This document shows positions 26,154 to 63,460 of a stretch of DNA of 64,000 bases, one piece after another. A model generated the notes under the pieces. The model ran no database searches. It saw nothing but the letters and a program-made list of their open reading frames with translations, and was not told the origin of the DNA. The stretch comes from Planctomycetota bacterium (GTDB taxonomy: Bacteria; Planctomycetota; Phycisphaerae; SM23-33). Made by a program: the position numbers and the translations under genes. Location of the stretch: the NCBI GenBank assembly GCA_029553505.1, contig JAKPKY010000165.1, positions 36,595-100,594 on the forward strand. Direction: 5' to 3'. Position 1 is the first letter of the stretch. Each line of letters starts with the position of its first letter.

Positions 26154-26222
26154 ACTGTACCATCCCCCGCCACCGCGTCAACCGGGCGATGTTTCGCCGC
26201 GAATTTCGCGAAGGACACAAAC

Positions 26223-48674: not shown

Positions 48675-48690
48675 CCGCGCCGTCCGCCGG

Positions 48691-49935: not shown

Positions 49936-50000
49936 GTCGTCTCCGTGGCGCGGGGGATTTTGCGGCAAGGCGGGGAGACTACTGCGATTCGCGGCGGGGG

Positions 50001-50906
50001 TCAATAACGCTCGCAGCGCCCGGCGCGTCCGAGCAGGCCGTCGCGCCAGCCCCTGGCGGCGGCAAGCAGGCGACGCCCCTGGCAGCGCAGGAGCTTCGGC
50101 AGCAGCGACCGCGCCGCCGCACATGCTGCTGCCGTCGGCAGGGCCCATGGGAAGAACCGCCGCACGGTCAGCAGCGCCGCCCGCACGGAGTAGTAGTCCT
50201 GCACGCAGCTGCGCGCCCCGACCGCGCCGCCGCCCTTGTGGCGCACCCGGCTGGCAGGCGCGACGGCGAGTTTCCACCCGGCTGCCCGGGCGCGAAGGCA
50301 CCAGTCCAGGTCCTCGCCGTACAGGAAGTATCCCTCGTCCATCGGTCCGACGGCGTCCAGCGCCGCCAGGCGAACCAGCAGGCTCGCCCCGCAGACGAAG
50401 TCCAGGTCCGCCGGCGCGGGCGCGGAAAAGTCGATTTGCCCAGCCATCGCGTGGTGCGTCAGTCCGGTCCAGCGGCTCCAGCGCCCGCCGCCCAGCAGCT
50501 CCAGGACGTTCGGGCGGTCGTACCGCAGCAGCTTGGAGCCGACGAAGGCCACCCGCGCGTCGGTTTCGGCCTGGTCCACCAGGGCGTCCAGCGCGTCGGG
50601 TTCGGCCGCCGTGTCGGAGTTCAGCAGCCAGGCGTACGCCCCGTCGCCCGCCTGCCGCGCATGACGGAGTGCGAGGTTGTTCGCCCCGGCAAAGCCCAGG
50701 TTCTCCCCGGGATGGAGAATTTCCACCGCCGGCCCGCCGGCGGACGCCCATGCCGCGAGGCGCTCCCGCGACTCGTCGGACGATCCGTTGTCCGCCACCA
50801 GCACGCGGAAGTTGTCGTACGCCAGCCCGCGCAGGCTCTCCAGGCACTCGACGGTGTCCCGCCAATTGTGGTAGTGGACGACGACGATGTAGACCTTCGG
50901 CCTCAA
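50001..50906 (-). CDS. glycosyltransferase family 2
   Basis: VYIVVVHYHNW...VADNGSSDES...(D)...YGEDLDW; GT2 DxD and ED motifs. TTG start with AAGGAG RBS; the upstream part of the ORF overlaps the 50960 repeat. Confidence 0.75.
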   Translation of the reverse strand: MRPKVYIVVVHYHNWRDTVECLESLRGLAYDNFRVLVADNGSSDESRERLAAWASAGGPAVEILHPGENLGFAGANNLALRHARQAGDGAYAWLLNSDTAAEPDALDALVDQAETDARVAFVGSKLLRYDRPNVLELLGGGRWSRWTGLTHHAMAGQIDFSAPAPADLDFVCGASLLVRLAALDAVGPMDEGYFLYGEDLDWCLRARAAGWKLAVAPASRVRHKGGGAVGARSCVQDYYSVRAALLTVRRFFPWALPTAAACAAARSLLPKLLRCQGRRLLAAARGWRDGLLGRAGRCERY

Positions 50907-50959
50907 AACCGCTCCTTTCCGCCCGTTCGCAGCCTGGTTCGGATTGATTGTGAACGATT

Positions 50960-51135
50960 TGCGGCGGCAAAGCACGAAATCCTAAATCCGAAATCCGAAA
51001 CAATTTCAAAATCCGAAACGGAAACCGCCTGTGGCTGACCCTGCGCCCAAGCCGGAGGAGTCAGCCTTGGAGATTCGAAGCGTTTCGTGCTTGTCGGTTT
51101 GGGATTTGTTTCGGATTTCGTGCTTCGAATTTCGA
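50960..51135. repeat. family-G palindromic element rich in AAATCCGAAA / TTTCGGATTT units
   Basis: Long imperfect inverted repeat (AAGCACGAAATCC...AAATCCGAAA // TTTCGGATTTCGTGCTTCGAATTTCGAATTT) between divergent GT2 and rmlA. Confidence 0.55.
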
Positions 51136-51276
51136 ATTTAGACATCGGCCAGATGCCACGGATGCAGCCGCACGGGTCTGGAGGGACATTTTAGTTGAAC
51201 GCCCGTGGGGCGTGGCGTATAACCCGCCCGATGGGACGGGACGCCATCTCCACGCAAGTCACGAGGTAACGGCAAG

Positions 51277-52347
51277 ATGAAAGGGCTGATTCTCTCGGGC
51301 GGAAAAGGCACACGGCTGCGCCCCCTGACGTTCACGCGGGCAAAGCAGCTCATCCCCATCGCCAACAAGCCCAACCTGTTTTACGTCGTGGAAGACCTTG
51401 TTTCGGCTGGGGTTACGGACATCGGCGTCATCGTCAGCCCCGAGACGGGCGACGAGATCCGCGCCGCGCTGTCCGACGGGTCGCGCTGGGGCGCGACGTT
51501 CACCTTCCTGACGCAGGAGGCGCCGCGCGGGCTGGCCCATGCGGTCAAGACCGCGCGGAGCTTCCTGGGCGACGAGCCGTTCGTGATGTACCTGGGCGAC
51601 AACCTGCTGTCGGGCGGAATCGCGCCGCTGGTCGAGGAGCACCGCCAGGGCAAGGCCGACTGCATCGTCCTGCTGACGCCGGTGCCCAATCCGCAGCAGT
51701 TCGGGGTGGCCGCCGTCGACGAGGCGGGGCAGGTCGTCCGGCTGGTCGAGAAGCCCGCCGACCCGCCCAGCAACCTCGCGCTGGTGGGGGTGTACCTGTT
51801 CAGCCCGGCCGTGCACGAGGTCATCGAGACGCTCCAGCCGTCCGCGCGGGGCGAATACGAGATCACCGACGCCATCCAGGGGCTGATCGACCGGGGCCTG
51901 CGCGTCGCGGCGCACCAGGTTCGCGGCTGGTGGAAGGACACCGGAAAGCCCGAGGACCTTCTGGAGGCCAACCATCTGGTGCTGTCGCAGCTTCGCGCGG
52001 ACATTCGCGGCTCGGTGGAAGGTTCGGACCTGGCCGGGGCGGTGGTGGTCGAGCCCGGCGCGCGGGTGGCGAACTCGCGGATTCGCGGCCCGGCGCACAT
52101 TGCGGCAGGGGCGGTCGTGCGAGATTCCTACATCGGGCCATACACCTCCATCGGGCGCGACGTGCAGGTGCTCCACAGCGAGGTGGAATACTCGATCCTG
52201 CTGGACGGGTCGGAAGTTCGCGAGTTGCCCTGCCGGCTGGACGCCAGCGTGCTGGGCGCGGGCGTGAAGGTGGCTGGGCGGTCCGACGGGCAGCGCAAGC
52301 ACACGCTCCAGCTGGTGCTGGGCGACCACAGCCTGGTGACGCTATGA
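51277..52347 (+). CDS. rmlA: glucose-1-phosphate thymidylyltransferase, long form (with C-terminal left-handed beta-helix domain)
   Basis: GGKGTRLRPLT...K motif at the N-terminus and hexapeptide-repeat C-domain. 356 aa. Confidence 0.85.
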   Translation: MKGLILSGGKGTRLRPLTFTRAKQLIPIANKPNLFYVVEDLVSAGVTDIGVIVSPETGDEIRAALSDGSRWGATFTFLTQEAPRGLAHAVKTARSFLGDEPFVMYLGDNLLSGGIAPLVEEHRQGKADCIVLLTPVPNPQQFGVAAVDEAGQVVRLVEKPADPPSNLALVGVYLFSPAVHEVIETLQPSARGEYEITDAIQGLIDRGLRVAAHQVRGWWKDTGKPEDLLEANHLVLSQLRADIRGSVEGSDLAGAVVVEPGARVANSRIRGPAHIAAGAVVRDSYIGPYTSIGRDVQVLHSEVEYSILLDGSEVRELPCRLDASVLGAGVKVAGRSDGQRKHTLQLVLGDHSLVTL

Positions 52348-53084
52348 CCGTCGCCGCGGAAAGGATGCTTCTGACCGGGGGGTCGGGCCGCCTGGGGCGC
52401 GAGCTGCAACGCTTGCTGGCGGGCATCGCCGCGCCGGGGCACGACGAGCTGGACGTGACGCGGGCGGAGTCCGTCGCGGCGGCCCTGGACCGCCTGCGGC
52501 CCGAGGTGGTGATCCACGCGGCCGCGTATACCGACGTCGCCGGCGCGGAGCGCGATCGCGCCGAGTGCTGGCGGGTGAATGTGGACGGCACGCGAAACGT
52601 CGTGGCGGCGGCCGCCGGGCGCGGAATCTTCCTGCTGCACCTCTCGACCGATTACGTGTTCGAGGGCACGACGGGCGGATATCGCGAGGACGACCCGCCG
52701 GGCCCGCCGTGCAACTATTATGCCCTGACGAAGCTGGTGGCCGAGGCGCTCGTGCGGTTCGCGCCGCGCCACTTGGTGTTGCGGACGAGCTTCCGCCCGC
52801 GCGACTGGCCTTACCCGCAGGCGTTCGAAGACCTGTTCACCAGCCAGGACTACGTGGACATCATCGCGCCGGAAATCGCGCTGGCGGCTTCGCGGTGCCT
52901 GGAGATTCCGTATAATACGCTGCACGTCGCCACCGAGCGGAAGAGCGCGCTGGAGCTGGCGCGCCGGCGTCGGCCCGACGTGCAATCGGCCAGCAAGAAG
53001 CAGGCGTCCGTTCGCCTGCCGGACGACATCTCGCTGGACACCGCCCGCTGGCGGCAGCTCAAGCAGCGCTGGAGCCACCCATGA
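52344..53084 (+). CDS. rmlD: dTDP-4-dehydrorhamnose reductase
   Basis: ATG overlaps the rmlA stop (ATGA). LLTGGSGRLG NAD-binding motif and YxxxK (YALTK). Confidence 0.8.
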   Translation: MTVAAERMLLTGGSGRLGRELQRLLAGIAAPGHDELDVTRAESVAAALDRLRPEVVIHAAAYTDVAGAERDRAECWRVNVDGTRNVVAAAAGRGIFLLHLSTDYVFEGTTGGYREDDPPGPPCNYYALTKLVAEALVRFAPRHLVLRTSFRPRDWPYPQAFEDLFTSQDYVDIIAPEIALAASRCLEIPYNTLHVATERKSALELARRRRPDVQSASKKQASVRLPDDISLDTARWRQLKQRWSHP

Positions 53085-53620
53085 AAATCAAGCTCAGCAC
53101 GAAGGCGCAGAAGGAACTGACGTACCAGTCCTACGGCCCGCAACCGGAAATCGACGGCGTGTTCTGCCATCCCCTGCGCAAGCACCGCCAGCTCGAGGGG
53201 TATTTCATGGAGCATCTGCGCCTCACGGGCGGCGCGGTGGAGGGGCTTCCGGTGAAGTTCGAGCTGCGCCAGCTTTCGCTGGCGGCTGCGGAGCCCGGGC
53301 GCGTCAATGCCTTCCACCTGCACCCCAAGCGCGTGCAGGACGAGCTGTGGTGCTGCGTGCGCGGGCGGATGCGCGTCTGGCTGGCCGACGTCCGCGCCGG
53401 CTCGCCGACCGAAGGCAACCGCCGCTGCTTCCTGCTCAGCGAAGAAGAGCCCGTCTTGCTGCACATTCCCAGCGGCGTCGCGCACGGCTACCAGGCCGGG
53501 CCCGACGGCGCGCTGCTGCTGTACGCCATGAACAGCCAGTTCCAGCCCGACGACCCCAACGAAGGCCGCCTGCCGTGGGACTGGTTCGGGGCGGACCTCT
53601 GGGAGGAAGACCGTGGCTGA
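53081..53620 (+). CDS. rmlC: dTDP-4-dehydrorhamnose 3,5-epimerase (RmlC-type cupin)
   Basis: ATG overlaps the rmlD stop. Cupin fold with conserved His/Tyr pattern (FHLHPKRVQDE...HIPSGVAHGY). Confidence 0.7.
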   Translation: MKIKLSTKAQKELTYQSYGPQPEIDGVFCHPLRKHRQLEGYFMEHLRLTGGAVEGLPVKFELRQLSLAAAEPGRVNAFHLHPKRVQDELWCCVRGRMRVWLADVRAGSPTEGNRRCFLLSEEEPVLLHIPSGVAHGYQAGPDGALLLYAMNSQFQPDDPNEGRLPWDWFGADLWEEDRG

Positions 53621-54626
53621 ATTCACGCGAGTGCTGGTGACGGGCGGGGCCGGATTCATCGGCTCCAACTACGTGCGGTACGCGCTGCGCGAAAAACCGG
53701 CCCGGAAACTCGTCGTGCTGGACAAGCTCGCCTATGCCGGCAGCCTGGACAACCTGCGCGACGTGATGGAGCGGATCGAGTTCGTCCGGGGCGACATCAC
53801 CGAGCCCGCCGACGTCCGCCGGGCCCTGCAGGGTTGCGACGCCGTGGTGAATTTCGCGGCCGAGAGCCACGTCGACCGCTCGCTGCTGGACAGCGCCCCG
53901 TTCGTCCGCACCAACGTCGCCGGCGCGTCGATGCTGCTGGAAGCCGCCCGCGAACTGGGCGTGAAGCGCTTCTGCCAGGTCTCCACCGACGAGGTCTACG
54001 GCGACCTGGCCGGCACCGCCCGGCACTCGGTGGAGACCGACGCGCTGCACCCGCGCAGCCCGTACGCGGCGACCAAGGCGGCGGCGGAGCACTTGGCCAT
54101 GAGCTGCCACCTGAGCTTCGGGCTGGACGTCGTCGTGACGCGCGGCTCAAACACCTACGGGCCGTGGCAGTACCCCGAAAAGATCATCCCGCTGTTCATC
54201 ACCAACGCGCTGGACAACCGCCACCTGCCCGTCTACGGCGACGGCAGCGCGGTGCGCGACTACATGCACGTGGAGGACCACTGCGCGGGCATCGAGACGG
54301 TGCTGTGCGCGGGCGCCGCGGGGCAGGCGTACAACCTGGGCGCGCGGCTGGAAGTGCCCGGGCGCGAGGTCGCCGAGCGAATCGTCGAGCTGACGGGGCG
54401 CCCGGCGGCGCTGATCCGCAACGTCCCCGACCGCCCGGGGCACGACTACCGCTACAGCGTGGACCCCGCCAAGGCCGAGGCGCTCGGCTGGCGGCGGCGC
54501 TGGACCTGGCCCGACGGGCTCGCCCAGGCCGTGCGATGGTACCGCGACCACGAGGACTGGTGGCGCGCGGTGAAGGAAAAACTCGAGTTCCGAAAACACG
54601 ACCGCGCGTGGTACGCCGACCGCTGA
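53613..54626 (+). CDS. rmlB: dTDP-glucose 4,6-dehydratase
   Basis: VLVTGGAGFIGSN, STDEVYG, and YAATKAAAEHL (YxxxK). Overlaps the rmlC end by 8 nt. Confidence 0.9.
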   Translation: MAEFTRVLVTGGAGFIGSNYVRYALREKPARKLVVLDKLAYAGSLDNLRDVMERIEFVRGDITEPADVRRALQGCDAVVNFAAESHVDRSLLDSAPFVRTNVAGASMLLEAARELGVKRFCQVSTDEVYGDLAGTARHSVETDALHPRSPYAATKAAAEHLAMSCHLSFGLDVVVTRGSNTYGPWQYPEKIIPLFITNALDNRHLPVYGDGSAVRDYMHVEDHCAGIETVLCAGAAGQAYNLGARLEVPGREVAERIVELTGRPAALIRNVPDRPGHDYRYSVDPAKAEALGWRRRWTWPDGLAQAVRWYRDHEDWWRAVKEKLEFRKHDRAWYADR

Positions 54627-54657
54627 TGACCGACCGACGGAGAACCGACCCAGGGCG

Positions 54658-55479
54658 ATGATCCACACGCTCAAGCATTTCCTGCTGTTCCTGCGAGGCC
54701 TGCACGAGGACCGGCGCGTCATCGCGCAGCTGACGCGGCGCGACTTCCAGACGCGCTACCTCGGCAGCTATCTCGGGCTCGTGTGGGCGTTCGTCCAGCC
54801 GGCCGTCACCATCGCCATCTTCTGGTTCGTCTTCGAGGTCGGCCTCCGGCAGCGCGGCGTGAGCGGCGAGCCGTTTGTCCTTTTCCTCGTCAGCGGGCTG
54901 ATTCCCTGGTTCTTCTTCGCCGACGCGCTGAGCGGCGCGACGACGGCCGTCCTCCAGAACGACTTCCTCGTCAAGAACGTTGTTTTCCGCGTCAGCGTGT
55001 TGCCCATCGTCCGCGTGCTCTGCGCGCTGTTCATCCACGCATTCTTCCTGTGTGTGCTGGTGGGCCTGTTCGCCCTCTACGGGCGCTGGCCCGACGCGTA
55101 CAGCCTCCAGGTGCTCTACTACTCCGCCGGCGCGGCGGTGCTGCTGCTGGGCCTGGGCTGGGGCCTGTCGGCCGTCGGGCCGTTCGTGCGCGACCTGCCG
55201 CACCTGGTCAACGTGGTGGTGCAGCTGGGATTCTGGCTGACGCCGATCGTGTGGAACTTCGAGTTCGTCGAGCGCAAGTCGCGCCTGATCGCCACGCTGC
55301 TGAAGCTCAACCCGATGTTCTACGTGGTGCGCGGCTACCGCGACGCGCTGGTGACGAAGGTGTGGTTCTGGCAGCACCCGTGGGGGACGGCGTATTTCTG
55401 GTGCGTGACGGGCGCGGTGTTCGTGCTCGGGGCGACGGTGTTCCGCCGCCTCCGCCCGCACTTCGCGGACGTGCTGTGA
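54658..55479 (+). CDS. wzm: ABC-2 type polysaccharide/O-antigen export permease
   Basis: Six TM helices, ABC-2 family pattern. 273 aa. Confidence 0.8.
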   Translation: MIHTLKHFLLFLRGLHEDRRVIAQLTRRDFQTRYLGSYLGLVWAFVQPAVTIAIFWFVFEVGLRQRGVSGEPFVLFLVSGLIPWFFFADALSGATTAVLQNDFLVKNVVFRVSVLPIVRVLCALFIHAFFLCVLVGLFALYGRWPDAYSLQVLYYSAGAAVLLLGLGWGLSAVGPFVRDLPHLVNVVVQLGFWLTPIVWNFEFVERKSRLIATLLKLNPMFYVVRGYRDALVTKVWFWQHPWGTAYFWCVTGAVFVLGATVFRRLRPHFADVL

Positions 55480-55489
55480 GGAAGTTTCG

Positions 55490-56875
55490 ATGACGGACGG
55501 TGCGACAGGACGAGCCTCCGCTTTCGATCCGCCGGCGGACGACGCCGCGGCGCTGGACGTGCGCGGGCTGAGCAAGGTCTACCGCCTGTACGACCGCCGC
55601 ATCCACCGCCTGTTCGAGTCGCTGCATCCGCTGCGGCGCAACTACCACCGCGACTTCTACGCGCTGCGGGACGTGAGCTTTTCGGTGGCCCGCGGCGAGA
55701 CGTTCGGGATCATCGGGCGCAACGGCAGCGGAAAGAGCACGCTGCTGAAGATCCTCGCGGGGGTGCTGACCGCGAGCGACGGGCAGGTGCGGGTGCGCGG
55801 GCGCGTCTCGGCGCTGCTGGAGCTGGGCACGGGGTTCAACCCGCTGCTGACGGGCATCGAGAACTGCCGATTCGCCGGCGCGCTGATGGGCTACAGCGGC
55901 GCGGAGATGGACGAGAAGCTCCGCGCCATCGAGGCGTTCGCCGACATCGGCGAATACATCCGCCAGCCGGTGCGGTCGTACAGCAGCGGCATGTTCGCCC
56001 GCCTGGCGTTCGCGGTGGCGATCAGCGCCGAGCCGGACGTGCTGATCGTCGACGAGGCGCTGTCGGTGGGCGACGAGGCGTTCCAGCGCAAGTGCTTCGC
56101 GCGGATCGAGCAGATCCAGCAGCGGGGCGGTACGATCCTGTTCGTCTCGCACTCGGCGGCGGCCGTGACGCACCTGTGCTCCCGCGCAATCCTGCTCGAC
56201 CGCGGCGAGCTGCTGCTGGCGGGCGAGGCGCGCCCGGTCGTCGCGCGCTACCACCGGCTGATCTACGCCCCGCCGGAGAGCCTCCAGGCCACGCGCGACG
56301 AAATCCGCCGCGAGGGCATCGTCGCGGACGAACCGCCCGCCGACGCCTCGCCCCAACCGGCCGACGACTGGTTCGACCCGCACATGAAGCCGCTCAGCAC
56401 CGTCCGCTACGAGTCGCGCGGGGCGGAACTCGCCTCGCCGCGCATCACCACGCTTTCCGGCGAGCCGGTGAACCTGCTGACCAGCGGGCAGGAGTACCTG
56501 CTGTCGTTCGACATGCACATCCGCCGGGAGCTGCGCCGGTCGCGCTGGGGCTTCACCATCAAGTCGCTGACGGGCGTGGAACTGGGCGGCATCACCTCGC
56601 ACCCGGAAGGCCACGGCGTGGACCGCCTGGAACCGGGCACGGTGGTGCGGGCGCAGTTCCGGTTCCGCTGCCTGCTGGCCGAGGGAACCTACTTCGCCAG
56701 CGTGGGCGTGGTGCGGTGGGAGCAGTGCACGCAGGAGTGGGCGCACCGCCTGGACGACGCGCTGATGTTCCGCGTCTCGCCGACGGTCCCGCGGGAGTTT
56801 TCCGGCACGGTGGACTTCCGCCCGCCGTCTGGGCCGCCCTGCGCCTCGTGGACGATCGAGGAGGACGCGCCGTGA
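55490..56875 (+). CDS. wzt: polysaccharide ABC transporter ATP-binding protein with C-terminal glycan-binding (Wzt_C-like) domain
   Basis: Walker A GRNGSGKST, signature SSGMFARLAFAVA, Walker B LIVDEA, plus an about 150-aa beta-rich C-terminal extension as in Wzt of terminally-capped O-antigen systems. Confidence 0.8.
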   Translation: MTDGATGRASAFDPPADDAAALDVRGLSKVYRLYDRRIHRLFESLHPLRRNYHRDFYALRDVSFSVARGETFGIIGRNGSGKSTLLKILAGVLTASDGQVRVRGRVSALLELGTGFNPLLTGIENCRFAGALMGYSGAEMDEKLRAIEAFADIGEYIRQPVRSYSSGMFARLAFAVAISAEPDVLIVDEALSVGDEAFQRKCFARIEQIQQRGGTILFVSHSAAAVTHLCSRAILLDRGELLLAGEARPVVARYHRLIYAPPESLQATRDEIRREGIVADEPPADASPQPADDWFDPHMKPLSTVRYESRGAELASPRITTLSGEPVNLLTSGQEYLLSFDMHIRRELRRSRWGFTIKSLTGVELGGITSHPEGHGVDRLEPGTVVRAQFRFRCLLAEGTYFASVGVVRWEQCTQEWAHRLDDALMFRVSPTVPREFSGTVDFRPPSGPPCASWTIEEDAP

Positions 56876-57840
56876 CGCGGACCCCGACGCTCTCGATCGT
56901 CGTAACGGTCTACAACATGCGCCGCGAGGCGCCGCGCACGCTCCGCTCGCTGACGCCCGAATACCAGGGCGTCGACGCGGACACCTACGAGGTGATCGTG
57001 GTGGACAACGGCTCGTCCGAGCCGCTGGACGAGCGCGAGGTCCGCTCGATCGGCCCGAACTTCCGCTGTCTGTCGATGGACCGCCCCGCGCCGTCGCCCG
57101 TGCCGGCGATGAACTTCGGCGCAGCCGCAGCGCGGGGGCGCTGGCTGGGCCTGATGATCGATGGCGCGCGGATCCTCACGCCCGGGGTGATTTCCCTGGC
57201 GCTGCGGGCCGTTGCCGCGTACGACGAGCCCGTCGTCGCGACGCTGGGCTTCCACCTCGGGCCCGACGTGCAGTACCGCTCCGTCGCGCGAGGCTACTGC
57301 CAGCGCGAGGAGGACCGCCTGCTGGCGCAAATCGGCTGGCCCGCCGACGGCTATCGCCTGTTCGAGATTTCCTCGCTGGGGGGCTCGTCGCGGTTCGGCT
57401 GGTTCCTGCCGATCGCCGAGAGCAACTGCGTGTTCCTCTCGCGCGGGCTCTGGGCGCGCCTGGGCGGGTACGACGAGCGGTTCGCCGCGCCGGGCGGCGG
57501 GCTGGCGAACCTGGATTTCTACAAGCGCGCGTGCGAGTCCGCCGGCGTCCAGCCGGTCGTGCTGCTGGGCGAGGGGACGTTCCACCAGCTTCACGGCGGA
57601 GCCTCGACGGGCCTTGCCGCCGGGGAAAATGAGCGGCGCTGGGACGCGGACAACGCTTTTTACGCCTCCCTGCGGGGCGAGGGGTACCGCTGCCCGACGC
57701 GCAAGCCGGTGTTCCTGGGCTCCGTGCCCCCGCCGGCCGAGGCGCTGCTGCGCCTCTCGCTGGAGATCGCCGAGCGCGCCCGGCGCGAGGGTTCGCCCGC
57801 GCCGTATGAGACCGTGGAAAGAAGCGTCCGACCGACATGA
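56872..57840 (+). CDS. glycosyltransferase family 2
   Basis: GTG overlapping the wzt stop. LSIVVTVYN...VIVVDNGS; GT2 fold. Confidence 0.65.
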   Translation: MTRTPTLSIVVTVYNMRREAPRTLRSLTPEYQGVDADTYEVIVVDNGSSEPLDEREVRSIGPNFRCLSMDRPAPSPVPAMNFGAAAARGRWLGLMIDGARILTPGVISLALRAVAAYDEPVVATLGFHLGPDVQYRSVARGYCQREEDRLLAQIGWPADGYRLFEISSLGGSSRFGWFLPIAESNCVFLSRGLWARLGGYDERFAAPGGGLANLDFYKRACESAGVQPVVLLGEGTFHQLHGGASTGLAAGENERRWDADNAFYASLRGEGYRCPTRKPVFLGSVPPPAEALLRLSLEIAERARREGSPAPYETVERSVRPT

Positions 57841-60800
57841 GCAACACCTGCATCGTGGTCCTGGGCATGCACCGCAGCGGCACCAGCGCGCTGACCGGCG
57901 CGCTGCGCCTGCTGGGCGTGGACCTGGGCAGCCACGTCATGCCCCCCAGCGAAGGGCAGAACGACCGGGGCTTCTGGGAGCACCTGCACGTCTACCACTG
58001 CCACGAAGAGCTGCTGAAAGCCCTGTCGCGCACGTGGGACGACCCGCGCCCGCTCCCGGTGGACTGGCAGCGGCTGGACTGCGTCAAGCCGCTCCGCCTG
58101 CGCCTGGAGGCGATCCTCTCGCGCGATTTCTCCGCGTCGGGGCTCTGGGGCATCAAGGACCCGCGCATGTGCCGCCTGCTTCCGCTCTGGCTGGAGATTT
58201 TCGCGAACCTCGGGTCCGAGCCGGCGTTCCTGCATTCGCACCGCCCGGCCGTCGAGGTTGCCCGGTCGCTGCACAAGCGGGACGGGTTCTCGATGGACAA
58301 GTCGCTTCTGCTGGCGGCCGACCACACGCTGGCGGCCGAACTGGGCACGCGGGGCCGGCGGCGGGCATTCGTGGAGTACGCCGACCTGCTGGCTGACCCC
58401 GCCGCCGCGCTGGACCGCGCGGGGCGCGAGCTGGGGATCGCCTGGCCTCGCCCGCCGACCGAGGCGCGCGACGAGCTGCGCGAGTTCGTCTCCCCGACGC
58501 TGCGCCACCACGTCGGCAAGGCCGCCGAGGCGGGCGCGGGCCCGCTGGCGGACCTCGCCCGGCGCGTGGACGAGGCGATGCGCGACGCCTGCCAGGGCCG
58601 GGCCGACGAACTGGCCGGACGCTTCGACGCCCTGCGCGACGAGCTGGCCCGCCTGACCGCGCCGATGAACGGCGTGTGCGGCGATCACGTGGACGACCTG
58701 CTGCGCCGCCAGGCGGACGAACTGGGCAACCTCGACGCGCTCGTGCAGGAGCGCACCCGCTGGGCCCGCGCGCTGGAGGCGAACCTGCGGACGGAAAAGG
58801 CCAGGCTCGCCCGCATCCTCCAGTCGCGCACGTGGCGGCTCGCCGAGGGCATCCACCGCGTGGTCGGGGCCGTCCGCGCCTTCAAGGCCGAGCGGAGGGA
58901 AATCCTCGCCGCCAGGTCCCGTCGCGTTCCGCTGGCGATCCGCCGGACGGTGCGCCGGGGTCTTCACGGCCTGCGCCGAAGCCGCTGCGCGATCCGCCGC
59001 GCCGCCGTCCTGGCCGGCGCGAAGCTCGGTCGCCTGCCTCGCCTGGACTGCTGCGGCGAAACTCCCGACGTGTCGATTGTCATCCCCGTCTACAACAAGC
59101 TCGCGTTCACGTTGGACTGCCTGTGGTCGATCGCGGCCGCGAACAACCGCGCAAGCTGCGAGGTGATCGTCGTCGATGACTGCTCGACGGACGGCACGGC
59201 GGCGCTGCTGTCGCGCGTGGCGAACCTGCGTTGCATCCGCAACGGGACAAACCTGGGGTTCCTGCGGTCCGCCAACGCCGGGGCCGCCGCCGCGCGGGGG
59301 AAATACATCCTCCTGCTCAACAACGACACCACCGTCACGCCCGGCTGGATCGACCGTCTGCGGGAGACGTTCGACCGGTTCGCCGACGCCGGGCTGGCGG
59401 GCGCGAAGCTGGTTTACCCCAACGGAGTGCTCCAGGAGGCGGGCGGAATCCTCTGGCGCGACGGCAGCGCGTGGAACTACGGAAACGGCGACGACCCGTT
59501 GGAGGCGCAGTACAACTACGTCCGCCGGGCGGACTACGTCTCGGGCGCTGCCGTCATGATTCCCGCCGACTTCTGGCGACAGCTCGGGGGCTTCAGCGAG
59601 GAGTTCCTGCCCGCCTACTGCGAGGACTCGGACCTGGCGATGCGCGTCCGGGCGGCGGGGCGGCAGGTGTACTACCAGCCGGCGGCCGTCGTCGTCCACC
59701 ACGAGGGCGTCTCCCACGGGCGGTCCGTCCGCGCCGGGCTCAAGAGCCACCAGGTCGCCAACCAGCGAAAGCTCTTCGAGAAATGGCAAACGGTCCTGGA
59801 GGCGGAGCATTTCGCCAACGGCAGCGAGGTCTTTCTTGCCCGCGACCGCAGCCGGGACCGAAAAACGCTGCTGTTCATCGACCACTACGTGCCGCACTTC
59901 GACCGCGACGCGGGCTCGCGCACCGTGATGGCGTACCTGCGCCTGTTCGTGTCGATGGGCCTGAACGTCAAGTTCCTCCCGGACAACTTCGCCCGCAGGG
60001 AGCCCTACACGACGGCGCTGGAGCAGATGGGCGTGGAGGTGCTCTGCGGCGGGCGGATGGCGCAGGGGTGGCGCCGGTGGATCCGCGATCACGGGCAGTA
60101 CCTGCGCTACGTGCTGCTGAGCCGCCCGAGCGTCGCGCCGAAATACGTCGATGTGCTCCGCGCCGCCACGGGCGCCAGGCTGCTGTACTACGGGCACGAC
60201 CTGCACTACCTGCGCGAGCGGCGGGCCTTCGAACTGGACGGGCGCGAGGAGCACCGCGCCGCGGCCGAGCACTGGCAGGCGATCGAACTGGACCTGCTGG
60301 CCCGCATGGACGCGGTGTACTACCCCTCGCCCGTCGAGATCGACGAAGTCCTGCGGGAGCTGCCCGGCGCCAACGCGCGGGCGATTCCCGCGTATATCTT
60401 CGACCGCTTCCCGACCGACGCGCCCCCGCCGGCCGAGGGGCGCAGCGGATTGATCTTCGTCGGCGGGTTCGGACACCCGCCCAACGCCGGCGCGGTCACG
60501 TGGTTCGCGCGCGAGGTGCTGCCCGCCGTCCGCGAGAAGCTGGGCGGCGTGAAGTTCCACGTCGTCGGCTCGCAGGCCCCGCCGGAGGTGCTGTCCCTGG
60601 CGTCGGACGACGTGATCGTGCACGGGTTCGTTTCCGACGACGAGCTGGACCGCCTCTACGCCACGTGCCGGCTGGCCGTCGTGCCCCTGCGGTACGGCGC
60701 GGGGGTCAAGGGAAAGGTCGTCGAGGCGCTCTACAAGCGGATCCCGCTGGTGACGACGTCGGTGGGGGCCGAAGGGCTGGTGGGCGTGGCCTCGTGCGCG

Positions 60801-60989
60801 GTGGTGGCCGACGGCGCGGAGCAGTTCGCCGCCGCGGTCGCGGAAGCGTACAACGACCCCGCGCGCCTCGACGCGCTGGCCCGCGCCGGCCTGGAGTACG
60901 TGCGGGAGCGATTCTCTCCGGCTGCGGCCCGCGCCGCCATCGCGCCGGAAATCCCCGAGGCCCTCGACCCGCGGAGCGCAACGCCATGA
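57837..60989 (+). CDS. trifunctional glycan-modifying protein: N-terminal sulfotransferase domain, central GT2 domain, C-terminal GT4 (GT1-fold) domain
   Basis: ATG overlaps the upstream stop. Sulfotransferase 5'-PSB loop GMHRSGTSAL and 3'-PB IKDPRM. Central VSIVIPVYN...VIVVDDCSTDGT...DxD/EDSD GT2 motifs. C-terminal GGFGHPPN...E...GVKGKVVEA retaining GT-B motif. Confidence 0.7.
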   Translation: MSNTCIVVLGMHRSGTSALTGALRLLGVDLGSHVMPPSEGQNDRGFWEHLHVYHCHEELLKALSRTWDDPRPLPVDWQRLDCVKPLRLRLEAILSRDFSASGLWGIKDPRMCRLLPLWLEIFANLGSEPAFLHSHRPAVEVARSLHKRDGFSMDKSLLLAADHTLAAELGTRGRRRAFVEYADLLADPAAALDRAGRELGIAWPRPPTEARDELREFVSPTLRHHVGKAAEAGAGPLADLARRVDEAMRDACQGRADELAGRFDALRDELARLTAPMNGVCGDHVDDLLRRQADELGNLDALVQERTRWARALEANLRTEKARLARILQSRTWRLAEGIHRVVGAVRAFKAERREILAARSRRVPLAIRRTVRRGLHGLRRSRCAIRRAAVLAGAKLGRLPRLDCCGETPDVSIVIPVYNKLAFTLDCLWSIAAANNRASCEVIVVDDCSTDGTAALLSRVANLRCIRNGTNLGFLRSANAGAAAARGKYILLLNNDTTVTPGWIDRLRETFDRFADAGLAGAKLVYPNGVLQEAGGILWRDGSAWNYGNGDDPLEAQYNYVRRADYVSGAAVMIPADFWRQLGGFSEEFLPAYCEDSDLAMRVRAAGRQVYYQPAAVVVHHEGVSHGRSVRAGLKSHQVANQRKLFEKWQTVLEAEHFANGSEVFLARDRSRDRKTLLFIDHYVPHFDRDAGSRTVMAYLRLFVSMGLNVKFLPDNFARREPYTTALEQMGVEVLCGGRMAQGWRRWIRDHGQYLRYVLLSRPSVAPKYVDVLRAATGARLLYYGHDLHYLRERRAFELDGREEHRAAAEHWQAIELDLLARMDAVYYPSPVEIDEVLRELPGANARAIPAYIFDRFPTDAPPPAEGRSGLIFVGGFGHPPNAGAVTWFAREVLPAVREKLGGVKFHVVGSQAPPEVLSLASDDVIVHGFVSDDELDRLYATCRLAVVPLRYGAGVKGKVVEALYKRIPLVTTSVGAEGLVGVASCAVVADGAEQFAAAVAEAYNDPARLDALARAGLEYVRERFSPAAARAAIAPEIPEALDPRSATP

Positions 60990-61717
60990 AAACCCTCCAG
61001 GTGGAAACCGTCACGCTGAACGTGCTGGACCGCCCCCGAATCCGTCGGCGCGAGGACCTGCTGGAACTGTACTGGCGGTCGCACCCGCGGTGGTTGTTCC
61101 TCAAGTCCGCCCCGCCGGGCGCGAAAGTGCTCGACGTTGGCGCGGGTTCCGGCGGGATGGTTCTGTGGAAGGGCTGGTGCGAGCCCCGGCGGGACGACCT
61201 GCGCATGTACGCGGTGGACCGCACGCGCGGCGAGCTGTTCGACCGCTACGACGGGTGGCAGGTGGCGGACCTGGACGTCGAGCCCGTCCGCTGCGGCGAG
61301 GGAGCGTTCGACGCCGTCGTCATGTCGCACGTGCTGGAACACCTGACCGACGAGGATGCGTTCTTCGCCCGCCTGGAGCCGCGGCTGGCGCCGGGGGCGC
61401 AGGTCTACATCGAACTGCCCGCGCCGTGGACCGCCGTCTGCCCCAGCCGGACGCTCTTCCTCGAACGCGGCATCGACGTGTCCACCGTCAACTTCTTCGA
61501 CGACGCGACGCACAAGCGGACCTTCGACCGCCCGGAGCTCTGGGCGCTGCTGGAACGCCACGGCTTCCGCGTGGTCCACTGGGGCGTCATCCGCAACCGC
61601 TTCCTGGAGGACGAGATGTTCACGTTCGGCTACACGCACCGCGACCAGGAACTGACCACCTACGGCGTGTGGTCGAAGCTCTCGTGGGCGCAGTACCTCG
61701 TGGCCGAGAGGCCGTGA
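60986..61717 (+). CDS. class I SAM-dependent methyltransferase
   Basis: ATG overlaps the upstream stop. VLDVGAGSGG (motif I) and DAVVMSHVLEHL (motif II/III). Confidence 0.7.
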   Translation: MKTLQVETVTLNVLDRPRIRRREDLLELYWRSHPRWLFLKSAPPGAKVLDVGAGSGGMVLWKGWCEPRRDDLRMYAVDRTRGELFDRYDGWQVADLDVEPVRCGEGAFDAVVMSHVLEHLTDEDAFFARLEPRLAPGAQVYIELPAPWTAVCPSRTLFLERGIDVSTVNFFDDATHKRTFDRPELWALLERHGFRVVHWGVIRNRFLEDEMFTFGYTHRDQELTTYGVWSKLSWAQYLVAERP

Positions 61718-61828: not shown

Positions 61829-63460
61829 TCAGGGGCGGGATGTGGTTTCCGGCGCAGCGCGGACGAACTTTCGGAATCCCACGGCCGGCAGGTCGGAAAC
61901 CTCGGGTTCGACCGGCGTCTCGCGCCAGCCGGACAACTCCGCCGCGTCGCGGACGATCCGCCGGGTGTTCTCCGGGTGGACGGTCGTGGGGGGCTTCTTC
62001 GTCACCACGTAGAACGCGTCGACGCCCGCGCGGTCGATGCAGTCGCGGATGTCGTCCGGGCCGCGATAGCCCCAGAACAACTCGTGCACGAGGCTCGTGT
62101 CGCCGTCGGACAGGCAGAGGATCTGGCTGGCGACGCCCCAGTCGGCGGCGAGGAACGTCGCGCGTCCGGCGGCGCGGGCGGCGAATTCGCCCGCCGCCGT
62201 CAGCGACGGGTCCCACCCCGCCGAGGCCTCGCCGCGCAGCAGCGAATCGCGCGTGCGGACGAGCCCGTCGGCCCGCAGTCCGACGCACAGCAGCACGACA
62301 GCCGCCAGAACCGCGCGCGACGCCCACGCCCGCCGCGCCGCGCCCACGGGCAGCGCCAGCGCCGCCGCGATGGCTGCGTACTGGAACGGCGTGCCGAGAA
62401 TCCAGTGGTGCACCCACGTGTTCTGGGGCAGCAGGGGCAGCAGCACGCCGACGGCGAGGTAGCTGCCCGCCAGCACGCCGGCCATGCGAAGGTGCGGGTC
62501 GCGCCGCCCCCGCAGCAGCCCGGCCAGCAGCAGCGCCGCCATCGCCGCGCCGACGACGCCCGCCTCCGCCGCCCGCGCGGCGCCGGTGCTGTCGCCCAGG
62601 ATGAGGCTGCGCAGCTTGCCCCCGCCGCCGAGTGACAGGTAATCCACCGCATACCGCCCGATGTCCGCGGGCGACATCGCGCGGACGTGCGCCACGTCGC
62701 GCAGGGAGATGGGGCTGCCCGAGTGCCACCAGGTGGCCGCGTTGACCGCGATCAGCGGCAGCGCGCCGACCAGCCCGCCCAGCACGCACGCACGCCAGTG
62801 GCGCAACGTCCGGCGTGCCGGGCTCATCGTCATCATCAGCGCCAGCGGGCCGACCAGCACCACGGAGCTGAGTTTCTCGAAGCACGCCATCGCCGCAAAG
62901 AACGCCAGCAGGAAACTGTTGCCCGGGCGCGGCTCGCCGCGCGCCTCGCCGCGGAGATACGTGCCCAGCATCGCCAGGCGCAGCAGCAGCGCCAGCGCGG
63001 CAGGGCCCCAGTCGAACCGGCTGACGAGCAGGACGGCGACGTCGGAGAGCGTCAGCAGGGCAAACGCCCCCGCCCCAGCCGGAGAAAGCCCGCGCCGCGC
63101 CAGCGGGAAAAACGCCACCAGCCCCGCCGCGACGAGCAGGATGCCCGCCATCCGCCATTCCGTCATGGAAAACCGCGCGCCGGTGGCGCGCAGGTACAGC
63201 CCGTACAAGCCGGTCTTGATGGCCGCGCTGTACGTCATGTTCATCGCGGGCAGTCCGCCGACGCGGAGAGCGGCCGGGTAGGTGCGGTCCGGATGCACGT
63301 AGGCGAACGCCCCCTTCGCCTGGTCCAGCTCGTCGTAGTACGCGCCCTGGGCGTCGAGGCGGAGGGTCGCGAACCACACGAAGATCGCGGCGGTTGCCAG
63401 GGCGAGCGCCCAGGCAGCCGGGCGGCCCAGGCCCGCGCGGAATGGATTGGGAAATTTCAC
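61829..63460 (-). CDS. polytopic membrane protein, putative GT-C-type glycosyltransferase/polymerase with C-terminal periplasmic domain
   Basis: 543 aa with many TM helices and an about 120-aa soluble C-terminal domain. That domain is clearly paralogous to the C-terminus of the next gene. Confidence 0.4.
   Translation of the reverse strand: MKFPNPFRAGLGRPAAWALALATAAIFVWFATLRLDAQGAYYDELDQAKGAFAYVHPDRTYPAALRVGGLPAMNMTYSAAIKTGLYGLYLRATGARFSMTEWRMAGILLVAAGLVAFFPLARRGLSPAGAGAFALLTLSDVAVLLVSRFDWGPAALALLLRLAMLGTYLRGEARGEPRPGNSFLLAFFAAMACFEKLSSVVLVGPLALMMTMSPARRTLRHWRACVLGGLVGALPLIAVNAATWWHSGSPISLRDVAHVRAMSPADIGRYAVDYLSLGGGGKLRSLILGDSTGAARAAEAGVVGAAMAALLLAGLLRGRRDPHLRMAGVLAGSYLAVGVLLPLLPQNTWVHHWILGTPFQYAAIAAALALPVGAARRAWASRAVLAAVVLLCVGLRADGLVRTRDSLLRGEASAGWDPSLTAAGEFAARAAGRATFLAADWGVASQILCLSDGDTSLVHELFWGYRGPDDIRDCIDRAGVDAFYVVTKKPPTTVHPENTRRIVRDAAELSGWRETPVEPEVSDLPAVGFRKFVRAAPETTSRP

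Follow-up and report, generated by a model that had tools for sequence, protein, structure and literature searches.

Gene content of the locus

The window, a 64,000-nt stretch of DNA, comes from a Phycisphaerales (Planctomycetota) genome. Reading of the sequence between positions 51277 and 61717 gives nine co-directional genes on the plus strand, joined by eight junctions, and together with the Pfam calls it bore out the coordinates and gene content of the first-pass annotation, which had nevertheless counted ten genes and nine junctions. A tenth glycan gene is present, but it is divergent, being a minus-strand GT2 gene at 50001-50975. Start and stop codons overlap at six of the eight junctions, namely as ATGA at 52344, 53081, 57837 and 60986, as GTGA at 56872, and as an 8-nt overlap with a GTG start at 53613. 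The two remaining junctions are gaps of 10 nt (wzm-wzt) and 31 nt (rmlB-wzm). As had been claimed, only the rmlB/wzm gap exceeds 10 nt, but the tally of tight junctions is seven of eight rather than eight of nine. A consensus scan detected neither a sigma-70-like promoter nor an intrinsic terminator within the nine genes, although this is a weak test in a planctomycete with 69% G+C. The nine genes probably form a single operon for a capped surface glycan exported by an ABC transporter. The gene content and domain calls support the original description of an ABC-transporter-dependent glycan locus.

NCBIfam equivalog cut-offs served as the criterion for the Rml identities. The first gene (51277-52347) encodes a long-form RmlA, a glucose-1-phosphate thymidylyltransferase of 356 aa (TIGR01208 rmlA_long, 464 bits, cut-off 320; NTP_transferase, 2e-59), and the fourth (53613-54626, GTG start) encodes RmlB, a dTDP-glucose 4,6-dehydratase of 337 aa (TIGR01181, 391 bits against 365; Pfam dehydratase domain, 7e-67). 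Between them lie genes for a short RmlD-like SDR reductase of uncertain specificity (52344-53084, 246 aa; RmlD_sub_bind, 6e-40) and for a divergent RmlC-like cupin epimerase (53081-53620, 179 aa; dTDP_sugar_isom, 2.2e-18). The RmlD-like protein scores 130.7 bits with TIGR01214, below the 224-bit cut-off, and aligns only over residues 7-149, whereas the model has 285 positions; the RmlC-like protein scores 50.7 bits with TIGR01221, for which the cut-off is 155.75 bits. The rmlADCB assignment of the first-pass annotation is therefore secure for rmlA and rmlB, but "rmlC" and "rmlD" fall well under their cut-offs, so that the sugar is a dTDP-6-deoxyhexose for which L-rhamnose is a candidate. From sequence, dTDP-L-rhamnose would be the simplest product, and a rhamnan polymer is plausible.

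The transporter genes encode Wzm (54658-55479), an ABC-2 permease of 273 aa (ABC2_membrane, 3.5e-13; NCBIfam Wzm/RfbD-type, 1.6e-17, below cut-off), and Wzt (55490-56875), an ABC ATPase of 461 aa (ABC_tran, 1.7e-21) with a C-terminal carbohydrate-binding module (CBM). This extra domain is genuine, as the Wzt_C match (1.7e-25) covers residues of about 305-442 (nt 56402-56815) with 90 bits against a Pfam cut-off of 30.4. A search of PDB sequences with the Wzt C-domain matched only the CBM of Aquifex aeolicus Wzt (E=0.04) and did not detect the solved O9a and O12 CBMs. The A. aeolicus transporter reportedly handles a cap other than sulfate.

Two separate GT2 glycosyltransferases belong to the locus. 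The accessory enzyme encoded within the operon (56872-57840, GTG start, 322 aa; Glycos_transf_2, 1e-8; GC3 0.92) is dispensable in the nearest relative (92% identical), in which the codons matching nt 57025-57789 are deleted in frame. The product of the divergent gene (324 aa; Glycos_transf_2, 2.4e-20) has a weak match, below cut-off, to the rhamnosyltransferase family TIGR01556 (1.8e-13); the gene adjoins the operon in the relative L002 as well, and it may supply an adaptor, primer-extension or side-chain glycosyltransferase. The last gene of the operon (60986-61717) encodes a class I SAM-dependent methyltransferase of 243 aa (Methyltransf_23, 9e-15), a lineage-specific enzyme that probably acts as a glycan O-methyltransferase.

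A sulfotransferase-type domain, a helical spacer and two glycosyltransferase modules in one protein

The gene at 57837-60989 encodes a 1050-aa protein that comprises, from N to C terminus, a sulfotransferase (ST) domain, a helical spacer, a GT-A module and a GT-B module. The proposed sulfotransferase-GT2-GT4 fusion is upheld by Pfam calls for the glycosyltransferases and by a fold model plus conserved PAPS-site residues for the N-domain. Among the domain families named in the first-pass annotation, Wzt_C, Glycos_transf_2 and a GT4-type domain were all matched. Sulfotransfer_3 was also seen on the N-domain, but with 17 bits (E=0.0074), which is under the 27-bit Pfam cut-off.

The N-domain (residues 1-232, nt 57837-58532) gave an AlphaFold2 (AF2) model with a pLDDT of 94, and the top 25 Foldseek matches in the PDB were all sulfotransferases, including TPST2 (8.5e-6), Stf1, CurM-ST, Stf9 and Stf0. 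A profile search of PDB sequences likewise returned sulfotransferase-family chains as 29 of 30 matches. The PAPS-binding residues are retained on alignment: R13-S14-G15-T16-S17, E48, K107, R136 and S144 do not vary among 32 sequences with 32-48% identity to the N-domain encoded here. The peptide GMHRSGTSAL is present and is, as had been proposed, the 5'-PSB loop; its RSGTS part is among the invariant residues. The assignment of IKDPRM as the 3'-PB has to be revised; the peptide is present and conserved, but the true 3'-PB is R136-x7-S144, which aligns to the RNPKDVAVS motif of SULT1A3. The architecture, which had been called unusual, is in fact common, given that the same N-domain occurs in 117 of the best 120 homologues and its signature peptide in at least 587 species genomes. 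We predict from sequence and model that the N-domain is a PAPS-type sulfotransferase serving as chain terminator, and we rank it first among the capping candidates.

P-loop nucleotide kinases have the same fold as sulfotransferases. One could therefore envision that the N-domain uses another donor, for example as an ATP kinase that makes a phosphate cap like the WbdD kinase. PFKFB, gluconokinase and dephospho-CoA kinase do appear lower in the fold search, and the subthreshold Sulfotransfer_3 score would fit as well. We consider this very improbable, because the domain has no Walker-A GxxGxGK[ST] motif and carries instead the RSGTS loop seen in TPST-type sulfotransferases, because the R-x7-S pair that binds the 3'-phosphate is specific to PAPS users and invariant, and because the best 25 structural matches are sulfotransferases. 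In addition, APS kinase genes are enriched beside the ST domain: this PAPS-forming enzyme is encoded no more than 10 kb away in 17 of the 166 related loci (those with the ST domain or the CBM sub-family), one case being the cysD-cysNC genes that immediately precede the rml genes in L004.

The spacer (residues 236-398, nt 58542-59030) is modelled in the full-length AF2 structure as helices at 236-252, 257-277, 282-329, 331-357, 367-376 and 381-398. Heptad-like helices at about 250-330, where a heptad heuristic run over the whole protein has its sole peak (253-330), are followed by an Arg-rich helical stretch of low confidence. Among homologues, whose catalytic domains are collinear, the spacer varies from 166 aa in this protein, the shortest, to 828 aa, and in one homologue (P0075) it is expanded by 14-residue tandem repeats. 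The variable length speaks for a ruler; the shortness of the present spacer, of which only about 45-75 residues are heptad-like, speaks against one. We predict that the spacer serves as a ruler, probably a coiled coil, and as a membrane-proximal segment.

The polymerase modules follow. The GT-A (GT2) module occupies residues of about 408-657 (nt 59058-59807; Glycos_transf_2, 7e-26), its model matches GT-A enzymes, and its invariant residues include D448, N495-N496-D497 and Q533-E534. The GT-B (GT4) module spans residues of about 677-1035 (nt 59865-60941; Glyco_trans_1_4, 1.6e-22), with a model that matches GT-B enzymes and with G954, G956, K958 and K960 invariant.

Pairing of the sulfotransferase domain with one Wzt CBM sub-family

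The Wzt C-domain aligns without gaps, at 25-40% identity, with its counterparts in 14 further ST-bearing loci from several phyla (Alpha- and Gammaproteobacteria, Paenibacillus and Leptospiraceae). The evidence newly added here is the reciprocal retrieval, from CBM to ST domain. Metagenome loci were fetched by the CBM peptide pattern alone, with at least 1.5 kb of downstream sequence required, and the ST domain was found in 51 of the 56 loci, usually directly after wzt. The proportion was 43/46 when at least 4 kb lay downstream. With the CBMs clustered at 70% identity, the ST domain was found in 16 of the 19 clusters; these metagenome loci are only partly independent of one another, and the pairing could in part be inherited synteny. 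This co-inheritance supports the proposal that the sulfotransferase is the candidate cap enzyme.

The methyltransferase had been put forward as a second capping candidate. In such a scenario methyl would be the export-licensing cap and the ST domain would be otherwise employed or inactive. The characterised caps include methyl and methyl-phosphate (PMC11231755), translational coupling links the methyltransferase gene to the fusion gene, and longer homologues of the fusion carry a methyltransferase domain after the GT4 module. These fused domains, however, have no detectable relation to the 243-aa methyltransferase and are located at the polymerase end rather than at the terminator end. The methyltransferase itself lacks a coiled coil and is rare, with only 20 homologues among 5.8 billion proteins, one of which (57% identical) precedes a 1620-aa multi-GT protein. 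Among the 166 related loci it is confined to the window and a close relative, whereas the CBM tracks the ST domain; an enzyme restricted to one lineage is unlikely to make the cap read by a conserved CBM sub-family. Because all PAPS-site residues are invariant, an inactive ST domain is also difficult to accept. We thus regard a methyl cap as improbable.

A somewhat less remote alternative, though still unlikely, is that the ST domain decorates internal residues; the product would be a polymer sulfated along its length, for example a bacterial rhamnan sulfate, instead of a chain with sulfate at its end only. The polymerase-to-transporter ratio would then set chain length, and the CBM would bind sulfated repeats generally. 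About ten ST loci from GTDB and the context set have a Wzt without the C-terminal extension, as judged by a local length and homology test (among them L004, L005, L026, L052, L071 and L072), which means that the ST domain does not strictly need a CBM read-out; in these loci it may sulfate along the chain. L004 and L005, the two loci for which Pfam context was read, encode a Wzt of 237 aa and, besides cysD-cysNC and rml genes, two additional stand-alone sulfotransferases. An extra stand-alone sulfotransferase in the P. mexicana locus and the two tandem ST domains of one homologue (P0016) also favor internal sulfation. On the other hand, the window has a single ST domain, placed opposite the polymerase across a helical spacer of variable length, an odd location if the enzyme were to modify each repeat. 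The ST domain is found as well in WbdD-like proteins, where a coiled coil and a hydrophobic anchor at the C terminus follow it, and its close association with a single CBM sub-family is the pattern known from cap-reading CBMs (PMC11231755).

A predicted sulfate cap and its relation to known systems

The position of the ST domain on a spacer before both glycosyltransferases, combined with its pairing with one CBM sub-family, suggests that the 1050-aa protein is probably a "sulfate cap" version of the chain-terminating ruler enzymes. We assign a probability of roughly 60% to its being a terminator-ruler-polymerase of the WbbB/Klebsiella pneumoniae O7 ORF6 type with a sulfate cap, as predicted from sequence, models and analogy. 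RmlA (long form), RmlB and the divergent RmlC- and RmlD-like enzymes would supply a dTDP-6-deoxyhexose, most simply dTDP-L-rhamnose. Chain assembly would take place on a polyprenol carrier in the cytoplasm, with the priming glycosyltransferase (WecA/WbaP) encoded outside the window. The GT-A and GT-B modules would elongate the chain, with adaptor or side-chain residues contributed by the divergent and short GT2 enzymes. The helical, probably coiled-coil spacer would keep the N-terminal sulfotransferase apart from the polymerase, so that it meets only chains of a certain length. Sulfation of the non-reducing terminal sugar would stop extension, and the Wzt CBM would recognize the sulfated end and pass the chain to Wzm/Wzt for export. 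The methyltransferase may decorate the glycan with O-methyl groups in this lineage only. Against the sulfate cap stands that the searchable literature contains no description of an ABC-dependent glycan capped in this way. Chain-terminating ruler enzymes are a known kind; the predicted sulfate cap would be a new variation.

The closest solved transporter is A. aeolicus WzmWzt (PDB 8dku, 7k2t, 6o14; PMC9445017); its ATPase domain matches that of Wzt strongly (8dku, 8e-66), whereas the CBM similarity is marginal. Relatives of the N-domain are the Sulfotransfer_3, TPST and mycobacterial Stf enzymes, with which it shares the fold, the RSGT[ST] 5'-PSB loop, the conserved Glu and Lys and the R-x7-S 3'-PB. 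Identity to them is only about 15-18%, and the present domain falls below the Pfam cut-off and resides in a glycan-assembly protein, where the predicted acceptor is the end of a lipid-linked polysaccharide.

In WbbB (K. pneumoniae O12) and ORF6 (O7), terminator and polymerase lie at opposite ends of a coiled coil, and K. pneumoniae O5 is a methyl-capped system (PMC11231755). As in the O12/Raoultella terrigena WbbB, polymerization, termination and chain-length control would reside in one protein with an N-terminal terminator, and the Wzt CBM is predicted to read the cap. Unlike WbbB, in which a beta-Kdo transferase precedes the coiled coil and two glycosyltransferases, the N-domain here has a sulfotransferase fold, and the cap would be a substituent rather than a sugar. 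In the WbdD-WbdA systems of Escherichia coli O9a and K. pneumoniae O3, the terminator likewise sits on a coiled-coil ruler, and a Wzt with a CBM exports chains only once they are capped, as predicted here. Stand-alone relatives of the ST domain have the same layout as WbdD, in which a coiled coil and a C-terminal anchor follow the catalytic domain, but in the present protein the terminator is fused to the polymerase, and sulfation is predicted in place of phosphorylation plus methylation.

The O7 ORF6, described as a methyltransferase-kinase terminator, a coiled coil and two GT2 rhamnosyltransferase modules (PMC11231755), also combines N-terminal terminator, spacer and two C-terminal polymerizing glycosyltransferases in one polypeptide. 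The two systems have in common dTDP-sugar (rhamnose) chemistry, a CBM-bearing Wzt as partner and an extra stand-alone glycosyltransferase that completes the repeat unit. They differ in the polymerase (GT2+GT4 here, GT2+GT2 in ORF6), in the length of the spacer, which is much smaller here, and in the terminator, a PAPS-type sulfotransferase in place of the methyltransferase-kinase pair, for which reason the predicted cap is sulfate and not methyl-phosphate.

Organization of the locus and its flanks

Between 51277 and 61717 on the plus strand we counted nine co-directional genes separated by eight junctions, rather than the ten genes and nine junctions claimed in the first-pass annotation: rmlA, rmlD-like, rmlC-like, rmlB, wzm, wzt, a GT2 gene, the gene for a 1050-aa fusion protein and the gene for a methyltransferase (MT). 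The tight coupling that it described does hold, because six of the junctions read from the sequence are overlaps (four ATGA, one GTGA and one of 8 nt), and the gaps are 10 nt at wzm/wzt and 31 nt at rmlB/wzm. The GC3 of the nine genes (0.81-0.93) is typical of high-GC codon bias, the G+C content of the window being about 69%. The nearest public relative is the Phycisphaerales (Planctomycetota) MAG UBA12270 / GCA_003485185.1, the large protein of which is 92% identical to that of the window.

A divergent GT2 gene (50001-50975, minus strand) marks the upstream limit of the unit, and its downstream limit is a convergent gene for a 543-aa polytopic membrane protein (61829-63460, minus strand). The latter has a faint PMT_2/GT-C resemblance (E 0.0078) and is kept in the close relative; its product may belong to the same pathway, as a periplasmic enzyme that modifies or transfers the glycan. 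A gene of 414 aa lies 3' of the divergent GT2 (48691-49935, minus strand), concealed within a mechanically listed 772-aa ORF. Its coding bias is normal (GC1/2/3 of 0.67/0.45/0.90); Pfam returned no match for it, and it does not resemble the URO-D-like gene located elsewhere in the window. The segment from 48676 to 49989 is missing entirely from the close relative. The divergent intergenic (promoter) region, 50926-51179, is about 220 bp longer than its counterpart in that genome, and the two do not align; a consensus scan of this region found no sigma-70-like promoter, a result that is uninformative in DNA of 69% G+C. Scanning some 30 further ORFs of the window against Pfam identified housekeeping genes and one sulfatase (24672-26177, minus strand; Pfam Sulfatase 2.4e-52), located about 25 kb upstream of the glycan locus and with no link to it found, and detected neither a WecA/WbaP priming GT nor cysC/cysDN.

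The dTDP-rhamnose pathway of the first-pass annotation was borne out in part. RmlA and RmlB are equivalogs (TIGR01208, rmlA long form, 464 bits vs a cut-off of 320; TIGR01181, 391 bits vs 365), whereas the proteins called RmlC and RmlD are not. The RmlC-like product (53081-53620) contains the Pfam domain (2e-18) and scored 50.7 bits against the TIGR01221 cut-off of 155.75; the RmlD-like product (52344-53084) scored 130.7 bits against the TIGR01214 cut-off of 224. The RmlD-like protein, at 246 aa, is also about 40 residues below the usual length, and RmlD models matched only its first 149 residues. Because these two proteins fall below the equivalog cut-offs, we call the donor a dTDP-6-deoxyhexose only. 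L-rhamnose is the simplest reading, and the nucleotide sugar may be one other than dTDP-L-rhamnose, with 6-deoxy-L-talose among the candidate products.

The 322-aa GT2 encoded after wzt (56872-57840) is intact in the window. In the 92%-identical relative (locus L002, 9954-9968) the gene lacks exactly 765 bp, or 255 codons, in frame (window positions 57025-57789), leaving a 62-codon remnant in which the overlaps with the wzt stop and the large-gene start are both kept. Because it has been lost in frame in so close a relative, we regard this GT2 as accessory. The deletion points to strain-level glycan variation in which translational coupling is preserved. Short microhomology of the GAGCGCG type is present at the edges of the deletion. 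The accessory GT2 is the sole cause of the window's departure from the usual adjacency of wzt and the sulfotransferase gene described below.

The sulfotransferase domain, spacer and glycosyltransferase modules

The domain scan of the 1050-aa protein (57837-60989) agreed only partly with its earlier reading as a sulfotransferase-GT2-GT4 fusion: the GT2 (7e-26) and GT4 (1.6e-22) domains were recovered by Pfam, whereas Sulfotransfer_3 did not reach its cut-off in the window protein (E=0.0074, 17 bits vs the 27-bit gathering score). A precomputed PF13469 hit is present in some of the homologues, and the same N-domain occurs in 117 of the 120 best homologues from a collection of 5.8 billion proteins. 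We aligned 32 N-domain sequences, which are 32-48% identical to the window's domain. The invariant residues are M11-H12-R13-S14-G15-T16-S17, N42, G45, E48, K107, P109, R110, R136, S144, L145 and R148. When the profile of this alignment was searched against PDB sequences, 29 of the 30 matches were sulfotransferase-family chains. The assignment of GMHRSGTS as the 5'-PSB loop was upheld by the invariance of R13-S14-G15-T16-S17. The IKDPRM peptide, taken in the first-pass annotation for the 3'-PB, was misassigned; in the profile search it was the sequence RxPxEVAxSL (R136..S144) that aligned to the canonical 3'-phosphate-binding motif of SULT1A3, RNPKDVAVS. The PAPS-binding residues on which the sulfotransferase call had been staked, namely the 5'-PSB loop, R136 and S144, are thus invariant in all 32 sequences. 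The conserved IKDPRM strand bears K107, which, in view of the catalytic residues of TPST and SULT, may be the transition-state lysine.

Structural modelling gave the same picture of the N-domain. The AlphaFold model (pLDDT 94, pTM 0.91) returned sulfotransferases as all of its 25 best Foldseek PDB matches (E 8.5e-6 to 4e-3, TM at most 0.58), among them TPST2 (8.5e-6), M. tuberculosis Stf1, CurM-ST, Stf9 and Stf0, with P-loop kinases ranked below them. A WbbB-type N-terminal beta-Kdo transferase was ruled out by this sulfotransferase fold, and no glycosyltransferase match was obtained in residues 1-400.

The full-length model (pLDDT 86.9) places the sulfotransferase (ST) at residues 1-232, helices at 236-398, the GT-A module at 412-657 and the GT-B module at 677-1035. 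The helical run includes residues 282-357 and a low-confidence Arg-rich stretch. When the whole protein was scanned with a crude heptad score, a heptad-like signal peaked only at residues 253-330. The Arg-rich helical stretch (residues ~332-398; 58830-59030; pLDDT <50), which connects the heptad-like helices to the GT2 module, holds a degenerate copy of the family motif S-x-S-W-R-x-T-x-P-L-R and may serve to bind the membrane or a partner. The GT2 and GT4 modules both have invariant residues in their catalytic regions. A fold search with the full-length model matched only generic GT-A and GT-B enzymes and was uninformative on donor specificity.

The fusion had been considered unusual in the first-pass annotation, but the prevalence of the N-domain among the best homologues contradicts this, as does the ST-spacer-GT2-GT4 layout itself, which is found in hundreds of proteins of 1045-1700 aa from Proteobacteria, Planctomycetota, Acidobacteriota, Nitrospirota, Verrucomicrobiota and Gemmatimonadota, and in one MAG labelled Bacillota. 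The spacer from ST to GT2 ranges from 166 to 828 aa among the homologues, with a median of 288, and the shortest is that of the window's protein and its close relative. In one homologue, P0075 (1190 aa), the spacer carries five copies of a 14-residue (two-heptad) repeat, ERDEQIxILNQAxA, and such repeats show how the length of the predicted ruler can evolve. Another, P0016 (1413 aa), has two tandem ST domains ahead of the spacer.

The signature peptide [LA]GMHRSGTS is present in at least 587 species-representative genomes. Among the 80 loci kept from the signature-peptide search, 31 encode ST and the GT2-GT4 module in one ORF. In others the protein is of about 420-880 aa, and its ST is followed by a long repetitive coiled coil, in some cases with a beta-rich insert in between, and by a hydrophobic segment at the C-terminus. 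In six loci (L105, L108, L114, L116, L167 and L092) a stand-alone ST ORF of this kind directly follows wzt, its long, internally repetitive coiled coil leading to a C-terminal hydrophobic or basic tail; the beta-rich insert is present in all of these except L108.

Pairing of the sulfotransferase with the Wzt C-terminal domain

Wzm and Wzt are encoded together (Pfam ABC2_membrane 3.5e-13 and ABC_tran 1.7e-21), and the solved transporter nearest to the Wzt NBD is Aquifex aeolicus WzmWzt (8e-66). The extra glycan-binding domain noted earlier at the C-terminus of Wzt was confirmed: Pfam Wzt_C matched over 140 of 143 profile positions (E 1.7e-25, 90 bits vs a cut-off of 30.4), and the sole PDB matches of the domain are Wzt carbohydrate-binding modules (CBMs). 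The single solved structure matched, and that marginally, is the A. aeolicus CBM; a search with the window's C-domain did not detect the solved CBMs of O9a (methyl-phosphate) and O12 (Kdo). The C-domain aligned without gaps, at 25-40% identity, to the Wzt extensions of 14 other ST loci, a set that leaves out the window and its close relative and spans Alpha- and Gammaproteobacteria, Paenibacillus and Leptospiraceae. One arginine of the C-domain, R125 (counted in a fragment whose first residue is Wzt 296), is invariant and is a candidate sulfate contact.

For a reciprocal test, we fetched 80 metagenome loci by a peptide pattern of the CBM sub-family alone and scored the ST afterwards. The pattern came from a 9-sequence subset of the 15-sequence alignment, so that the test samples one CBM sub-clade. 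Where the sequence continued for 1.5 kb or more past wzt, 51 of 56 loci had the ST, in nearly every case in the gene adjoining wzt; where it continued for 4 kb or more, 43 of 46 did. After clustering of the CBMs at 70% identity, 16 of the 19 clusters with an eligible member had the ST; these frequencies are counted within this CBM sub-family alone. The frequency of the ST after wzt (51/56) lends comparative support to the prediction that the sulfate would be a non-reducing terminal cap that stops polymerization and is needed for export.

The main alternative is that the ST sulfates along the chain and not only at its end. Whereas the Wzt extension is at least 138 aa in roughly two thirds of the ST loci with a visible Wzt homologue, about 10 related ST loci have, by a local length and homology test, a Wzt without it. 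Two of these, read with their Pfam context, hold several sulfotransferases, and sulfation there may run along the chain. We consider internal sulfation an improbable account of the window's locus. The two loci, L004 (1-12237) and L005 (65-10285), each combine rmlACDB and wzm with a short Wzt that has no CBM, a pair of stand-alone sulfotransferases and an ST-GT2-GT4 homologue; a GT2 and a WecA-like primer GT come next. Both look like pathways for a multiply sulfated rhamnan-type polymer. In L004 the order is cysD-cysNC, rmlACDB, wzm, wzt, the two stand-alone sulfotransferases and the ST-GT2-GT4 homologue. Of the 166 related loci, 17 have an APS kinase gene no more than 10 kb away, which is indirect support for the predicted transfer of sulfate from PAPS.

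The first-pass annotation also offered the 243-aa MT (60986-61717) as a capping enzyme. This class I SAM enzyme is rare: a search found 20 homologues. One close homologue sits ahead of a 1620-aa multi-GT protein, and a role in glycan O-methylation is therefore a reasonable reading. The MT has no coiled coil and is confined among the 166 related loci to the window's lineage, whereas the CBM sub-family is widespread, and it is thus an improbable source of the cap read by the CBM. A dual terminator formed by ST and MT gained no support either: the MT domains fused in the longer homologues show no detectable relationship to that of the window and are placed after GT4, at the polymerase end.

Predicted sulfate capping and its relation to known systems

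In the prototypes WbdD (O9a/O3), WbbB (O12) and K. pneumoniae O7 ORF6, the terminator lies across a coiled-coil ruler from the polymerase, and Wzt accepts only capped chains, the cap being read by its CBM (PMC11231755). The window's protein resembles WbbB and O7 ORF6 in layout, with a helical, putatively coiled-coil spacer, but the place of their terminator is taken by a PAPS-type sulfotransferase, and a sulfate-cap mechanism is, for this reason, the best supported. We propose that the GT-A/GT-B pair would polymerize a chain derived from a dTDP-6-deoxyhexose, that the ST would sulfate the non-reducing end when the chain spans the short spacer, and that the C-domain of Wzt would then recognize the sulfated end. 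We assign this mechanism as a whole a probability of roughly 0.6. A broader proposal, on which we hold the chances to be evenly balanced, is that sulfation is a widespread means of capping ABC-transporter-exported glycans, with the GMHRSGTS family of STs carried on coiled-coil rulers, either fused to GT2-GT4 or stand-alone and WbdD-like, and co-evolved with a Wzt CBM sub-family that reads terminal sulfate, from Planctomycetota and Proteobacteria to Paenibacillus.

A sulfate cap, if true, would be a new, strongly anionic chemistry among chain terminators and a new ligand class for Wzt CBMs, and would tie the control of surface-glycan length to the cellular supply of PAPS. The ST/CBM pair is readily recognized, and its cultured carriers include Pseudomonas koreensis, Dyella choica, Stella sp. 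ATCC 35155, Paenibacillus sedimenti and Pseudoxanthomonas mexicana. Since several of the many genomes with the signature peptide are from cultured species, the prediction is testable in tractable organisms and not in an uncultured planctomycete alone. The outcome for the window is a modest one: its locus adds a single member to a large family in which no shorter spacer was seen.

The literature searched described neither a sulfotransferase tied to WbdD/WbbB-type termination nor a sulfate-capped ABC-dependent glycan. Such a terminator may already have been predicted in silico, and a 2019 bioinformatic census of terminators (Mann, Kimber and Whitfield) could include it. In Aeromonas salmonicida, one published paper places an unexplained ORF of 216 aa with a sulfotransferase domain between wzt and wbbB. 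The terminators that one primary paper (PMC11231755) names for characterized ABC-dependent glycans are methyl, methyl-phosphate and Kdo residues, and it describes the terminal pyruvate of K. pneumoniae O1 as non-essential. WbdD has the same layout as the stand-alone ST proteins, which bear a different catalytic head. The machinery of the window's locus appears to be that of the known cap-and-ruler system, and it is the predicted chemistry of the cap that would be new.
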